Virus record (IMG/VR): IMGVR_UViG_3300027845_000349
Coordinates: 23,805-87,804 of that record
Direction: 5' to 3' (one strand)
Origin: a virus
Lineage: Duplodnaviria > Caudoviricetes
Length of the DNA: 64,000 bases
The position numbers were made by a program, and so were the translations under genes. The notes under the pieces were generated by a model. That model ran no database searches. It was not told where the DNA came from and worked only from the letters and a program-made list of their open reading frames with translations. The stretch's first letter is position 1, and every line of letters starts with the position of its first letter. Below are positions 3,419 to 54,111 of the stretch, piece after piece.

Positions 3419-4050
3419 TTCTTATCCTTCAGACCAATTTTTGCTTTTTCACAATCTTTAATTCTTTCTTCAGCTTGTTCTTTAGTTAATCCCTGGCCTA
3501 TCTTTTTCTTAACCCAGTCTGAAGTTTGAGGACTTGAAACTTCAAAATCTTTGATATATCTGTTTAATATTTTCATCTGTTCAGGAGTTACCATTTCTTT
3601 TTCAACAAAAGACTCAATTCCTGAATAATCAGCACCATCGAATTTCCCCATAAATACATCTGCAGAAAATCCAAGTTTAGACAGACCTTTTGTTAAAGCA
3701 TCTGTTGAAGCTTTCTTTGCATAATCTTTATTTTCTACATATCCATTCTTTGTTTTAGAATTTATTCTTGCATCTGAATTTATAGGGAATTCACCTTCTG
3801 GATAATAAAGAACCGCAGTATATATTATGGAAGCAACTGATTTATCACCGGTCATTATAGGTGTAAACTTTTCATCCTTAATACCCCATTTATTCCCAAG
3901 AGGTCCCCATTCAGTTGTTGCTTTAAGTATCTGATAATGTGCATCTATGGCCGTATATTTATAAGTTCCAATTTCTACACGCTTTGTATATTTAGGATCA
4001 GTTTGTTCTACCTTTTCCCATAATTCAATATTCTTATTTTCTTCGCTCAT
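3415..4050 (-). CDS. Single-strand annealing protein, Rad52/Sak-like
   Basis: KKASTDALTKGLSKLGFSADVF resembles the Rad52/Sak core; translationally coupled to the YqaJ exonuclease gene. Confidence 0.6.
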   Translation of the reverse strand: MSEENKNIELWEKVEQTDPKYTKRVEIGTYKYTAIDAHYQILKATTEWGPLGNKWGIKDEKFTPIMTGDKSVASIIYTAVLYYPEGEFPINSDARINSKTKNGYVENKDYAKKASTDALTKGLSKLGFSADVFMGKFDGADYSGIESFVEKEMVTPEQMKILNRYIKDFEVSSPQTSDWVKKKIGQGLTKEQAEERIKDCEKAKIGLKDKK

Positions 4051-5674
4051 TATTCCCCCTTCTTTAGATAGTTATTATATTTTATAGATCCAATTATTAT
4101 ACAAAATAACCCTATAACAACAAATACCAAATCAATAAAATCATTATCTGGTTTATCTCTTATTAAGAAAGCTCCTAAAAGTAATACCAAATAATAAACA
4201 ATATTTATTAATATATCTTTTAATGTATTTCTCATATATTATTCCTCCTGTTAATTTATATAGCCTACTATAACTATTTGTTACCAAGTCCTGAAAGATC
4301 AATACTACCAACAACTTTAAGAAAGCCATCTCTAATCTGATCAGTTCTATAAAATCTTAATTCCATACCATCTACGCCAAGACAATATATATTGTACTTA
4401 TCTGACCTAAGATACATCATTCTTTTATTTGGGTTTACATCTCCAGCAGATTCATTTTCAATAATATCTCCCATTTTAAAAGCATTCATTCTCTACCACC
4501 TTAATATTTATTAGATACTACTTGTTTAAAATTTAAAAAACTCTTTTCTCATCCCATGTGGGAGGTCTAAAAATTTATCATCTCTTGAAGCTGGAAATTG
4601 TTTAATAAAACTATTCAGTGACATAATATCTTTCTGTGGAAGTTTAACAAATCTTACATATTCCATTTTGCCACCAATACAGAACACAGCCCAACTATCC
4701 CCATGAGGATGTACATCTACTCCCAACTGGAAATGATCAACTAAATTTTCAATATTCATTCTTGTTTGGCTTAAATCGCTAATGGTTTTATTAATGTTTT
4801 CTATATTCTCTTGAGGTAATTTACACGCTTTCACTTTTCTCTCAAGTTTTTGCATTCTTTCTTTCATTAAGAATATCGATGAATAATTTTGTCCATGTAA
4901 ATTATAGTTCTCCTTAACTCCAAGCCATTTTCTAAGTTTGCTTCTTAACCATTCTTTCATTTCTTACCACCTTAATTAAGATATTACCTATTTGTCTAAT
5001 TGTCTTAAAAGGCGACTAAGCCCTCTACCGTCTTTTATTGAACTACCAGAAGCCCATCCAGAATATGGAAAATATAGAACAGACTTGCCATTGAATATAA
5101 AATCTATCCTTGTTTCATCATGGGATACTTCAAAACCCCTCTTTTCTAATTCTTTTACAGCTTTATCCATTCTTAACGGCTGAAGTTTATCTTCTCTTTC
5201 CTGATTTATCCTATTACTCATGATGCTCCACCTGAATAGGCTAATTTTACAATTCCTGATTTTTTAAATACTGCCAGAACTTCAAACAATTCAACAGCAC
5301 AAGAATGATCTTCTCTATCAATAGCAATTATTTCACCTTTCTTGAGATCCGGGTTTAATTTTTTCTGAAGATCTCTTAAAATCTGTTTCGATTTTGGATT
5401 ATTTATATCTTCTTTAATCCATGATGTTTCCCAGTCATAACCAAGTATATTTGCTTTCAATATACCCTCCCTAAGAAATACATATCTGATTAGATTGTCT
5501 TGGATTTATATTAATCCTAGAATTATCATCAGAATATTCTTTTGTTATTTCCATGAATCCTTCTTTATCTTCTCTAATAAAATAGACATAACCGTTATTC
5601 ATTTTAATCTCAAGACTTCGATTTACAATAATCTTTTTCTTGTTTGTTCCAACTTCTTTATTTAGAACTTCCAT
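4050..5674 (-). other. Block of six small leftward hypothetical ORFs (4050-4235, 4274-4489, 4526-4960, 4988-5221, 5218-5460, 5471-5674)
   Basis: Head-to-tail ORFs with SD-like motifs; no recognisable family. Confidence 0.7.
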
Positions 5675-20572: not shown

Positions 20573-20671
20573 GGGGATATGGCAGAATGGAGCCTTTCGA
20601 GGCGAATGCACAATTAGTCAATAATTGATCCATGGTGACACATGGTGGAGGAACAATACCTTCTATCTCCA
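20573..20671 (+). ncRNA. Non-canonical tRNA-like RNA with Ala-type acceptor and TCA at the anticodon position
   Basis: GGGGATA/TATCTCC-A acceptor; D-stem GCA/TGC with an inserted GCCT-TTCG-AGGC hairpin; CAATT-AGTCAAT-AATTG arm; long V-arm; T-arm GGAGG-AACAATA-CCTTC. Confidence 0.7.
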
Positions 20672-22666: not shown

Positions 22667-25019
22667 ATGGAAAGAATTAAAGATAGATAATTTACCACCC
22701 GATATATTAACAGGGGGCTATGAATTTATGCGTAAGTATAATCATAAAGATACATGGAGCGCATACTGGCCTTGTGATTTATCAATAATAGAAATATTTA
22801 AAATATTATATAACGAAAATTCTAACATAGGTTTTAAATACCGAAAACTAGAACCAAAAGTATCAACACATGAAGAGATAATGAAGCCAAATAGATATTG
22901 GAGAGGACTAGATGAAGAATTTCAAATGGTATGGGAGAAAGCAGATATGTATAGGGAAAATGACAATAAATACTTAATTCATGATGATTGGAGAGATAGA
23001 GCCTATTTTTCTGGTCGAAGATTCAAAGATGGTATACCACCGGAGGAAAAATGAAAGACTTAAAATATTATGAAGAAAAGAATAGAAAACTTCTCGAAGA
23101 AAATATAAAACTAGATCTTAAATTAAAACCAGTTAAAATAACAGTAGATTGTACAATATACAAAGAAGAAGATTTAGAAAAATCATTTGTTAAATATACT
23201 CTTAGAAAAACATGGAGAAGAGCTGCACGTGTAGAATTTGAGAAAGCAAAAGTTCCAACACATAGATTTTTAAAATGTTCTCCAGGTGCAAAACTTAACG
23301 GAATTAAACTCGATGATGGAATAATAATACCTATATTTGCACCTGAAGTCCTTGATGATAGTGAATTAACTTCAAATATGATGCGAGAAGGGCTCATTTT
23401 GTCATTACAGAATAAATATGACACTTATTATCATAAACTCTTATTATCGTTTGATCTTAGCGATTTACCAGAACAAATCCAGGATAAAATAAAAGAATGG
23501 GGTATTAATCATGGGCAATGAAAAAGATAAGGGCAAAGATGCTTGTCTGCATATAACGGAATTACCTGTAGGAGATCTTATTATTGTTAAAAATAATATA
23601 AATTGGAAATATTCTCCAAAAGAAGACATAACTCCATTAGAAGTTGCACTAATGTTTCCGATGTTTATGAGCTACCATACAACCGGTTATTTAACTCAGT
23701 ATGATTATTTAGGATATATCATAGAAAATAATCTAGAAAGACATTTTTGTAAGGATACAAATAATGAAAACAATATGTGATAGTTGTAAAAATAAATCAA
23801 CTTGCAACGCTGCTAAAAATATTGATCCTGGGCATGTGAGCTGTTCTGGATGGACTCCATACGAATATACAAATGCTAACGATACAGGAGCTAACAAATG
23901 ACAGATCTTGATAATTTTATAGAGATCTATAAATCTTTAGATATTGAACTAAAAGTGTTTGAGACAAATGAAGGTAAAGCATTTAAAATAGGAGAAGGAT
24001 CATATCAAGAGCAAGATATTACTATAAGTAGTAAATTTGGAGGGTATGGGGGTTTTTATTCTATCGTTAGATTCAGTAGATCAGGTGAATTTTTAGGACA
24101 AGATTTTTTTGAGTAAGGAGATTGATATGAGTGATAAGAAAAGAGAGCCTTTAAGTGGAACGTATGAAACTTCTACATTCAGAGAAATGATATTCTTTGA
24201 GTCACAAGTCAGAGAACTAGAAGCATACACAACACAACTTGAAGAAAAGCTGAAGATATATGAGAACGCATTAAAAGACATTAGAGATAATTATGATTGT
24301 GATGAGGATGCACATAAATACAATACTACATGTCGTTGCTGTTTAGCAGACGAAGCACTAAAAGAAATCAATGGTAACAGTAATGAAAAAACATAAAGAC
24401 AAGCGTAATCCTAATAAAACATCAATCAAGTTTTATACATGGCATTCAGACGGTACTAAAACATTAGTTCTTGAAATACCAAATAAAATATACCGGTCTA
24501 AATATTCAGATAGCAGAATGGAGGGTTATAGATGAAGTGTCCTAAGTGTGGAAGTACCACTATAGATTATGTTGCTTGTGGTTGTTATTGCATAATTTGT
24601 GATTACAATACAGGCAAACAGCCAGAAGAGAAAGACTGTTATACATGTATCAATTTTAATAAATGTGCTCCAGATCCAAAATTACAACTAAGAATAGAAT
24701 GTTGTGGAAATGATAGTTATTGTAACTACATAACCAAAAATGGAGAATCATGATGAAAGATAAACAATGAATGATAAGAAATGTGAAACGTGTTATTACG
24801 ATACAGATAGAATACTCTCGGATTGTTCAAACAACCCAATCGATAGACAAGAAATAGCATGTGATCAATGTGGAGATGAATTGTCTCATTACAGAGAATT
24901 AACAGGCATAGAACCACAAGAGAAGACGGGATTAGATGAACTAAGAAACTTATGTACTATTTACGATAGCATTTCAAGCACTACTATTTTGAAATTGCTA
25001 AAGGAACAGGAGTAAATGA

Positions 25020-37683: not shown

Positions 37684-37712
37684 AAAGCCCTGGTATAAAT
37701 CAGGGCTTTTTT
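37684..37712 (+). terminator. Intrinsic terminator insulating the tRNA operon
   Basis: AAAGCCCTG-gtataaat-CAGGGCTTT followed by a T-tract. Confidence 0.85.
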
Positions 37713-37713
37713 A

Positions 37714-37742
37714 TTGACATAATTATAATATTAAAATAAGGT
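37714..37742 (+). promoter_or_regulatory. Promoter of the leader-peptide/tRNA operon
   Basis: TTGACA(37714)-17-TAAGGT would start at about 37749 (leaderless); an alternative TATAAT at 37724 would give an AAGGT SD. Confidence 0.6.
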
Positions 37743-37749
37743 AATAAAT

Positions 37750-37803
37750 ATGAACAAGAAAAATCTATACAGTTTATATCTCTCGTTGGTAATGCCTGAG
37801 TGA
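37750..37803 (+). CDS. Attenuator leader peptide MNKKNLYSLYLSLVMPE
   Basis: 17 codons; codons 6-13 are CTA TAC AGT TTA TAT CTC TCG TTG (only Leu/Tyr/Ser), matching the downstream tRNAs; TGA then TAG stops. Confidence 0.85.
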   Translation: MNKKNLYSLYLSLVMPE

Positions 37804-37854
37804 TAGAACTATTTTCTTTATTATTCAGGCCATCCATTGTGGGTGGTTTTTTTT
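37787..37854 (+). promoter_or_regulatory. Antiterminator/terminator pair (transcription attenuator)
   Basis: 37787-37807 pairs with 37817-37836; this competes with terminator GCCATCCA-ttg-TGGGTGGT (37829-37847) plus a T8 tract ending just before the first tRNA. Confidence 0.85.
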
Positions 37855-37856
37855 AT

Positions 37857-37930
37857 GCTCCGGTAGCCCAACTGGTAGAGGCATGGGACTTAAAATCCTT
37901 GTGTTGACAGTTCGACTCTGTCTCGGAGTA
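37857..37930 (+). tRNA. trnL: tRNA-Leu(TAA), short variable loop
   Basis: Cloverleaf; anticodon TAA 37891-37893; 5-nt variable loop; A73; no encoded CCA. Confidence 0.9.
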
Positions 37931-37936
37931 ATTCAA

Positions 37937-38010
37937 GCCTTGGTGGCCTAATTGGTATAGGCGCTGGTCTTAGGAACCAGACTTTGAGAGTTCGAGTCTC
38001 TCCCGAGGTA
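37937..38010 (+). tRNA. trnL: tRNA-Leu(TAG), short variable loop
   Basis: Cloverleaf; CTGGT-CTTAGGA-ACCAG; 5-nt variable loop; A73. Confidence 0.9.
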
Positions 38011-38016
38011 ATACAT

Positions 38017-38101
38017 AGAAGAGTATGTTAGCGGCTATACACGCAGTCTTGAAAACTGTTTACACTTAACGGTGTCGTGGGTTCGAGTCCCACCTCTTCT
38101 G
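38017..38101 (+). tRNA. trnS: tRNA-Ser(TGA)
   Basis: AGAAGAG/CTCTTCT acceptor, anticodon TGA 38050-38052, long V-arm, G73. Confidence 0.92.
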
Positions 38102-38105
38102 TTAT

Positions 38106-38189
38106 GGACAAATGCGATAATCGGTATTCGGCTTGATTGCTAATCAAGTGATCTGAAAGGGTTTATAGGTTCGAGTCCTATTTTGTCCG
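38106..38189 (+). tRNA. trnS: tRNA-Ser(GCT)
   Basis: GGACAAA/TTTGTCC acceptor, CTTGA-TTGCTAA-TCAAG, long V-arm, G73. Confidence 0.92.
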
Positions 38190-38193
38190 ACAT

Positions 38194-38277
38194 GGGTAGG
38201 TATGCAAACTGGTGAAGCAAACGGTCTGTAAAACCGTGACGTAAGATACATTGTGAGTTCGAATCTCACCTTACCCA
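38194..38277 (+). tRNA. trnY: tRNA-Tyr(GTA)
   Basis: GGGTAGG/CTTACCC acceptor, ACGGT-CTGTAAA-ACCGT, long V-arm, A73. Confidence 0.92.
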
Positions 38278-38338
38278 CTTCTTCAAGTTCTAAATTCTGG
38301 GGCTTTTTTTATTTGTTAAATATGTATATAATACTATC

Positions 38339-54008: not shown

Positions 54009-54111
54009 GGGAAGTTAGCTCAGTTGGTAGAGCAAGCCAATATAGCATGTTGTGAAAAATCGCAAACTTGTATAATTGGTTATGTCATAGGTTCAAGCCC
54101 TATACTTTCCA
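54009..54111 (+). ncRNA. tRNA-like RNA with Ala-type acceptor and extended (37-nt) anticodon region
   Basis: GGGAAGT/ACTTTCC-A acceptor; canonical D-arm GCTC-AGTTGGTA-GAGC; AGCCA/TGGTT stem enclosing 37 nt; T-arm ATAGG-TTCAAGC-CCTAT. Confidence 0.8.

Follow-up and report, generated by a model that had tools for sequence, protein, structure and literature searches.

Why should a virus carry transfer RNA (tRNA) genes for leucine, serine and tyrosine in a single cluster, and why should its leucine tRNAs lack the long variable arm that, in the textbook view, bacterial-type tRNA-Leu always possesses? These questions are raised by five adjacent tRNA genes in IMG/VR record IMGVR_UViG_3300027845_000349, a virus of the Caudoviricetes, of which we analysed the 64,000 nucleotides from position 23,805 to 87,804 (hereafter the window, whose own numbering is used throughout). 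A sequence-only reading had proposed that the cluster replaces the targets of a host nuclease recognising class II (long-arm) tRNAs, and that the short-arm Leu tRNAs are escape variants. We favour, as the probable though by no means certain explanation, a self-contained and horizontally mobile tRNA supplement cassette of ~0.6 kb, in which a leader open reading frame (ORF) and an intrinsic terminator precede the five tRNAs and would provide them as a demand-driven top-up.

A leader of matching codons and a terminator precede the tRNA genes

Between them, the five genes can read Leu codons of the UUR and CUN boxes, Ser codons of both UCN and AGY type and the Tyr codons UAY, and upstream of them lies a short leader ORF whose composition mirrors this set (Table 1). 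Codons 6-13 of the leader read L-Y-S-L-Y-L-S-L (CTA TAC AGT TTA TAT CTC TCG TTG), that is, eight consecutive codons, all different and all for Leu, Tyr or Ser, which sample each of the five tRNAs at least once and can be decoded entirely by the cassette's own products. The terminator follows directly, with a stem-loop at 37827-37849 and a T-run that ends one base before the first tRNA. A 14-bp hairpin that holds the last codons and the stop codon of the leader and abuts the terminator (-19.6 kcal/mol, z = -4.3) also appears when the entire leader is folded at minimum energy, and is a candidate anti-terminator.

We propose that slow decoding of Leu, Ser or Tyr codons would stall the ribosome within the leader, whereupon the stop-codon hairpin could form, weaken the terminator and permit read-through into the tRNA genes. 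When the matching tRNAs are plentiful, the ribosome would instead arrive at the stop codon and melt the hairpin, and transcription would terminate. Host shut-off, a defence effector or codon mismatch are all candidate causes of a shortage of the three isotypes. The Leu/Ser/Tyr grouping is real and, to judge from this arrangement, the genes are probably co-regulated.

The cassette is also delimited as a unit. In relative G001, a tRNA-less contig whose terminase large subunit (TerL) is 67% identical, a near-identical terminator-like motif runs straight into TerL, and because of this direct transition we conclude that ~0.6 kb was inserted at this place in the window. The motif itself flanks the cassette, at 37686-37712 (AAATCAGGGC, followed by a T-run) and as a near-copy at 38285-38312, and is single-copy in G001 (74640-74660); it may mark an insertion site or a duplicated target. 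The comparison shows the cassette to be, on sequence grounds, an insertion relative to its tRNA-less relative. Six relative contigs with TerL 57-66% identical, one of them 92% complete, hold no tRNA genes, and the enrichment of such clusters that had been suggested for related phages was therefore not found among close kin. The nearest cultured phages are distant (TerL 32% and portal 27% identical) and infect hosts of many kinds.

Cassettes behind matching leaders recur in other contigs

Similar units were found in other contigs. That in contig L087 is collinear with the window's cassette and sits among unrelated flanking genes: a leader with the run LYSLSLSLSYS and a hairpin with a T-run (seen by eye, its loop being longer than our terminator scan admits) precede Leu(tag), Leu(taa), Ser(tga), a degenerate Ser(gct)-like gene and Tyr(gta). 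In L465, a promoter, a leader containing LLLSLSYL and a terminator are followed by Leu, Tyr, Ser, Leu and Leu, and all of these Leu genes are short. Where the isotype set changes, so does the leader. Phe codons are added in the leaders of L514 (Phe, Tyr, Leu, Ser x4, with a terminator before the tRNAs) and L252 (Ser x3, long-arm Leu x4, Phe x2, Tyr), and the leader of L168 (Tyr, His, Pro, Gln) contains the run QQQYQPQPYP. In contig L176 (IMGVR_UViG_3300008116_000067), each of three sets, Asn, Arg+Ser and Lys/His/Phe/Trp, has a leader-terminator unit of its own ahead of it, and this contig gives the clearest indication that phages use leader-gated tRNA cassettes as a general, modular device. 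Bacterial contigs likewise contain Leu-rich or Ser-rich leaders ahead of Leu-only or Ser+Leu cassettes.

This correspondence exceeds what shuffling produces. Among 351 arrays of 2-4 isotypes, five have an upstream ORF with a window of eight codons that all match the array's own isotype set (8/8), compared with a mean of 0.15 matching arrays, and a maximum of 2, in 300 shuffles of the isotype assignments. A pattern specific to the window's cassette (Leu D-arm, gap, Ser anticodon stem) had no match in 185,579 prokaryote genomes.

Two of these contigs invite further remark. Upstream of the L087 leader (~4995-5060, minus strand), TAnnTTTG-like and TTTG motifs can be discerned by eye that are reminiscent of Bacteroidota promoters and hint at the host group of that contig. 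L176 is a 31%-GC (guanine plus cytosine) phage contig with minus-strand arrays at 1964-2138, 3516-3682 and 4255-5064; its Asn set consists of two Asn genes, each of its leaders begins with MRTI and is rich in the residues of its own cassette, and each unit has a strong terminator.

The short-arm leucine tRNAs belong to a widespread family

ARAGORN and the Rfam tRNA model (RF00005) agree on five plus-strand genes, spanning 37856-38278 in ARAGORN's call and scoring 49-60 bits each with Rfam, so that the Leu/Ser/Tyr-only content is correct for the cluster. Both programs also confirm that the two Leu tRNAs are 74 nt long with 5-nt variable loops: each matches the full 71-position Rfam model without a long insert and has its anticodon, UAA or UAG, in a canonical 7-nt loop. 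The ARAGORN cloverleafs further give both genes a 3-bp D-stem and A73. They also bear out the G1.U72 of both genes and the U.U and G.U pairs in the anticodon stem of Leu(UAA) that the sequence-only reading had described, the latter two lying at the upper end of the stem; an alternative drawing of Leu(UAA) has an eighth pair and 76 nt. The Ser and Tyr genes, at 85-87 nt, retain long variable regions as had been stated, and so do ~95% of viral Ser tRNAs.

That reading regarded the short-arm Leu genes as escape variants. They prove to be members of a widespread type I family found in phages and in mobile bacterial tRNA arrays. A sensitive BLAST search with the two Leu genes matched 77 phage records annotated as tRNA-Leu, and 12 relatives were aligned with the two genes. 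In four cultured carriers, Serratia phage Slocum and Vibrio phage vB_ValS_X1 (both T5-like, Demerecviridae), Escherichia phage ESCO50 (FelixO1-like, Felixounavirus) and Streptomyces phage Elmer, ARAGORN finds every tRNA-Leu to be short (74-76 nt before CCA) and Ser and Tyr to be long. The tRNA-Leu of T5 is 85 nt, so the trait is not universal in Demerecviridae. Leu(UAA) is ~90% identical over 57 nt to a tRNA-Leu of Slocum, with the region from the D-arm through the variable loop, including the U.U/G.U stem, nearly identical; Leu(UAG) is 86-87% identical over ~63 nt to tRNA-Leu of T5-like Vibrio phages; and tRNA-Tyr(GUA) is 87-89% identical over 79 nt to tRNA-Tyr of Bacillus phages.

A search with a D-arm-plus-anticodon pattern matched at least 119 IMG/VR contigs, at whose loci the other tRNA-Leu genes are short in 73 cases and long in 20, while 93 of 97 Ser genes are long. 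Viral samples drawn independently of Leu, using a class I D-arm and a Tyr motif as two anchors, contain 26 short and 70 long unique tRNA-Leu genes (~27% short). The same pattern in bacteria matched at least 120 contigs, at least 108 of them with a short gene, occurring as a lone Leu(taa) in Actinomycetes, Verrucomicrobia and Myxococcales and within large arrays in cyanobacteria and Deinococcales. With arm loss this widespread, its interpretation as an escape adaptation made locally in this phage is not supported; we see it as a trait inherited within the family, which is presumably tolerated since bacterial LeuRS (leucyl-tRNA synthetase) would have no need of the arm. Roughly one in four tRNA-Leu genes of phages and many accessory bacterial copies thus break the textbook rule, an exception that is hardly discussed; our literature searches found no description of arm-less phage tRNA-Leu, and a single paper on such tRNAs, the Streptomyces study of Fan et al. 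2019 (PMC6614811). If our reading holds, it bears on LeuRS recognition, tRNA annotation and orthogonal tRNA design.

Small cassettes of short-arm Leu, with or without Tyr or Ser, also occur in bacterial contigs L401, L320, L313, L306 and L414/L417; hosts of such cassettes include Planctomycetota, Armatimonadota and others, and several cassettes have Leu- or Ser-rich leader ORFs and terminators upstream. Separately, tRNAs of 90-96 nt with a TAT anticodon (called Ile), which combine a class I-type D-arm with a very long variable region, recur in phage arrays and in a Sphingopyxis contig; loci with such genes include L014, L017, L054, L068 and L334:6268-6359.

Leucine identity elements are retained without the arm

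Are these short RNAs leucine adaptors at all? The E. coli (Escherichia coli) LeuRS identity set comprises A73, A14, A15:U48 and the placement of G18G19 (Fan 2019, PMC6614811). Both window genes keep A73, A14, A15:U48 and the Leu-type D-loop. Across viral genes, a Leu-type D-arm, with a 3-bp stem and a loop bearing A14, A15 and G18G19 in the Leu register, is present in 111/160 short and 49/90 long tRNA-Leu, whereas no other isotype has it in more than 9% of its genes; short and long tRNA-Leu carry A73 in 92% and 94% of cases, and A15:U48 in 92% and 87%. To judge by these features, the window's short tRNAs are true Leu derivatives. An origin from a class I tRNA by anticodon change, which a BLAST likeness to Streptomyces-phage tRNA-Lys had brought up, is unlikely given the Leu-type D-arm and A15:U48. 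The G1.U72 pair was considered as a mark of arm loss and rejected, as its frequency is 39% in short and 36% in long viral tRNA-Leu; the pair is a general feature of viral tRNA-Leu that has no link with the arm.

Searching the phage for its own LeuRS or another class Ia synthetase, a CCA-adding enzyme, RtcB or an RNA ligase found none, and the phage therefore depends on host enzymes. A precedent for charging exists in that the type I tRNA-Leu(CAA) of Streptomyces coelicolor is leucylated by Streptomyces LeuRS (Fan et al. 2019, NAR, PMC6614811). We infer that the host LeuRS likewise charges both short Leu tRNAs. The earlier proposal that LeuRS tolerates arm loss is thus favoured by the conserved identity elements and by this precedent, and opposed by the failure of E. 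coli LeuRS to charge the same S. coelicolor tRNA (PMC6614811).

That failure, together with the weakened anticodon stem of Leu(UAA), would suit a view in which the short tRNAs are not leucine adaptors but uncharged, mischarged or decoy RNAs, the class II theme then being an artefact of reading anticodons. We regard this as very improbable. Both genes have the Leu-specific D-arm together with A14, A15:U48 and A73, and the same features are kept in hundreds of phage genes, from coliphages as well as from phages of many other hosts; even the odd anticodon stem of Leu(UAA) is conserved in Slocum, and the leaders intersperse Leu codons among those for Ser and Tyr to a degree that matches the content of their cassettes.

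The isotype grouping and its alternative explanations

When viral contigs are sampled neutrally, 16.3% of their tRNAs are for Leu, Ser or Tyr, and five of five would accordingly arise by chance with P ~1e-4. Among 77 small viral loci anchored on one of the three isotypes, three are Leu/Ser/Tyr-only where 0.55 were expected (P = 0.013, ~5-fold). The corresponding excess in small bacterial loci, 2/19 against 0.64 expected, is not significant. In 81 de-duplicated large arrays, different class II isotypes adjoin one another 28 times with 30 expected (z = -0.5), the excess adjacency there being due to same-isotype tandems. The enrichment that had been predicted for Leu/Ser/Tyr-only clusters is therefore borne out modestly in small viral loci, and not in bacteria or among the tRNA-less close kin. 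The grouping looks selected.

What might have selected it? The classical explanation of phage tRNAs is codon compensation, by which the isotype set would mirror Leu, Ser and Tyr codons that are poorly served by the host tRNA pool. The phage does use such codons heavily (per 1000: TTA 30, TCA 24, AGT 14, TAT 33), and Leu, Ser and Tyr together account for ~19% of its codons. Several AT-rich codons that are used more than most of those served by the cassette have, however, no cassette tRNA (per 1000: ATA 43, AGA 28, AAA 54-73, AAT ~40), Leu/Ser/Tyr codons are no more frequent in late than in early genes (183 vs 194 per 1000), and codon usage is almost unchanged in G001, the relative that lacks tRNA genes. 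The leader, moreover, draws on the Leu and Ser codons that are rarest in the phage (CTC, 2.6, and TCG, 1.9 per 1000). On this comparison, made within the phage and with G001, codon bias does not obviously explain the isotype set, and we consider plain compensation rather improbable.

A second alternative retains the core of the sequence-only reading: an effector of the host or of a resident element would recognise or cut the long variable arm of class II tRNAs, the cassette would replace its targets, and the leader would serve as a damage sensor. The arm-less Leu tRNAs would then be intrinsically resistant, whereas the Ser and Tyr copies would act by excess or through altered arms. A nuclease aimed at long-arm tRNAs is plausible in itself, and bacterial effectors acting on the class II arm have indeed been published, as the earlier reading supposed. 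Septu and retron-Eco7 PtuAB cut tRNA-Tyr at its variable loop and are counteracted by tRNA-Tyr of T5 and T6 (PMC13096335, PMC11555353); that of T5 owes its resistance to an unusual variable loop, and T6 evades them through amplification of its tRNA-Tyr (PMC13096335, PMC11555353). MenT3 depends on tRNA-Ser having its long variable loop, and acts weakly on Leu and Tyr (PMC11162799). The ~5-fold enrichment of small Leu/Ser/Tyr-only clusters fits such a threat as well. So would a tRNA-inducing sensor, which would be most sensible if tRNA rather than amino acid were limiting, and the phage's GC content of 33% probably tracks that of its host, which would make a large codon mismatch unlikely.

Other observations speak against an effector of this kind. 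Among the Schlafen-like nucleases, which the earlier reading had named as candidates, the bacterial members characterised to date are not specific for class II: their targets are Lys, Ala, Met and further class I tRNAs, or else the T-loop of tRNAs in general. We know of no bacterial effector that acts on Leu, Ser and Tyr tRNAs together. The arm is absent from the Leu copies and kept by those for Ser and Tyr, a contrast that could bear on recognition by such a nuclease but that belongs to the whole family and extends to bacteria, and short-arm Leu is common in phages whose arrays contain all isotypes and in bacterial chromosomes. Sister cassettes hold Phe (L514, L252) or long-arm Leu (L252), and leader-gated sets of other isotypes exist (L168, L176). 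In large arrays class II isotypes neighbour one another no more than expected by chance, and G1.U72 is not tied to arm loss. We therefore judge this alternative possible but doubtful. The same caution applies to its most specific form, which we also think unlikely, namely that the cassette is an inducible counter to a PtuAB/Septu-, MenT/AbiE- or Schlafen-like effector to which the arm-less Leu tRNAs are immune, such tRNAs being common since the arm is a recurrent immune target. If our reading holds, the Leu/Ser/Tyr(/Phe) grouping offers a falsifiable handle on whether long-arm tRNAs are a common target of anti-phage immunity, a role so far shown only for tRNA-Tyr, with PtuAB.

The explanation we prefer, a mobile supplement cassette responsive to decoding, must itself be weighed against several contrary points. 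No sigma-70-like promoter was called upstream of the cassette within the window. The 3' arm of the candidate anti-terminator shares only 4 nt (37827-37830) with the terminator stem, and a 7-bp core terminator could still form, so that mutual exclusivity of the two structures is not firmly shown. Since extra tRNA is useless under amino-acid shortage, the regulatory logic needs a tRNA shortage, which is itself a supposition; and since E. coli LeuRS left uncharged the only type I bacterial tRNA-Leu on which it was tried, charging by the host is an assumption. Finally, identities between the cassettes of different contigs (0.6-0.75) equal the background of random viral tRNAs with the same anticodon. 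Common recent descent of the Leu/Ser/Tyr cassettes, which we had considered, is accordingly not shown, and because the cassettes have diverged as much as random viral tRNAs, the Leu/Ser/Tyr(/Phe) grouping would appear to be either ancient or convergent.

Genomic setting and other features

The record that carries the window is a complete 87.8-kb virus genome with terminal repeats. In PHROGs annotation, the cluster is neighboured by a Holliday-junction resolvase on one side and by TerL, portal and a DNA methyltransferase on the other.

Table 1. Features of the cassette, in window coordinates
Feature	Position	Strand	Basis
Whole cassette, ~0.6 kb inserted after the upstream terminator and before the TerL promoter/start	37713-38300	+	comparison with G001
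Leader ORF, 17 codons + stop	37750-37803	+	read from sequence
14-bp hairpin, candidate anti-terminator	37794-37830	+	RNA fold
Intrinsic terminator, 10-pair stem, 3-nt loop, T-run	37827-37856	+	terminator scan
tRNA-Leu(UAA), short-arm (type I)	37857-37930	+	ARAGORN, Rfam
tRNA-Leu(UAG), short-arm (type I)	37937-38010	+	ARAGORN, Rfam
tRNA-Ser(UGA), long variable arm	38016-38102	+	ARAGORN, Rfam
tRNA-Ser(GCU), long variable arm	38105-38191	+	ARAGORN, Rfam
tRNA-Tyr(GUA), bacterial type, long variable region	38194-38278	+	ARAGORN, Rfam

The complete genome contains, besides the five clustered genes, one tRNA-like gene at 54009-54111 (+). It scores 48 bits with Rfam and has a class I body, a 4-bp D-stem and A73, so that the description "exclusively class II" applies to the cluster and not, strictly, to the genome. 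An insert of ~30-36 nt with a small hairpin inside it occupies the anticodon loop; ARAGORN in intron mode calls the gene "Tyr(ata)", and short repeats at both junctions make the splice point ambiguous. Two identities are conceivable for the gene, a tRNA-like scaffold with an insert and an interrupted tRNA, which might serve ATA, the codon that the phage uses most. A further tRNA-like cloverleaf, proposed at 20573-20671 (+), had no Rfam match at E values up to 1, and its T-loop lacks the canonical motif.

Comparison with known systems

In its layout the cassette resembles the textbook leader-peptide attenuators of the trp, his, leu, thr and ilv operons and of E. coli pheST, in which a short ORF with a run of regulatory codons is combined with an intrinsic terminator and with an alternative hairpin whose formation depends on where the ribosome stands; the hairpin described here is a candidate for the latter part. 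Known attenuators gate amino-acid biosynthesis or a synthetase, whereas the leader in the window would gate tRNAs that read the leader's own codons. A full-text literature search returned no description of tRNA genes attenuated in this way. If true, such an operon would represent a new use of attenuation, in which the leader would gauge decoding capacity directly.

As phage-borne copies of host tRNAs, the five genes may be set beside the tRNA-Tyr genes that counter PtuAB (PMC11555353, PMC13096335) and the T5 tRNA-Lys that counters PARIS (PMC11464382), which replace tRNAs depleted by a defence nuclease and escape it by excess copies or an altered variable or anticodon loop. In the PtuAB and PARIS cases nuclease, target and rescue have been demonstrated for one isotype, while any such role in the window would involve three isotypes.

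The short-arm Leu genes have their own counterparts. Those of Slocum, X1, ESCO50 and Elmer share with the window a length of ~74 nt without CCA, a 5-nt loop, a Leu-type D-loop, A73 and often G1.U72, and differ in that they reside in large arrays covering most isotypes rather than in a Leu/Ser/Tyr-only cluster. The type I tRNA-Leu(CAA) of S. coelicolor likewise combines a Leu anticodon with a short variable loop beside class II Ser and Tyr tRNAs and is charged by a normal bacterial-type LeuRS, where charging of the window's tRNAs is predicted from sequence; it is chromosomal, has the anticodon CAA and is recognised independently of A73 (PMC6614811), whereas the window's genes are phage-borne and carry UAA and UAG. 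Animal mitochondrial tRNA-Leu, also type I, has the Leu anticodon, short variable loop and A73 seen here, but is served by a dedicated mitochondrial LeuRS, belongs to a lineage unrelated to that of the window's genes and often has a reduced elbow.

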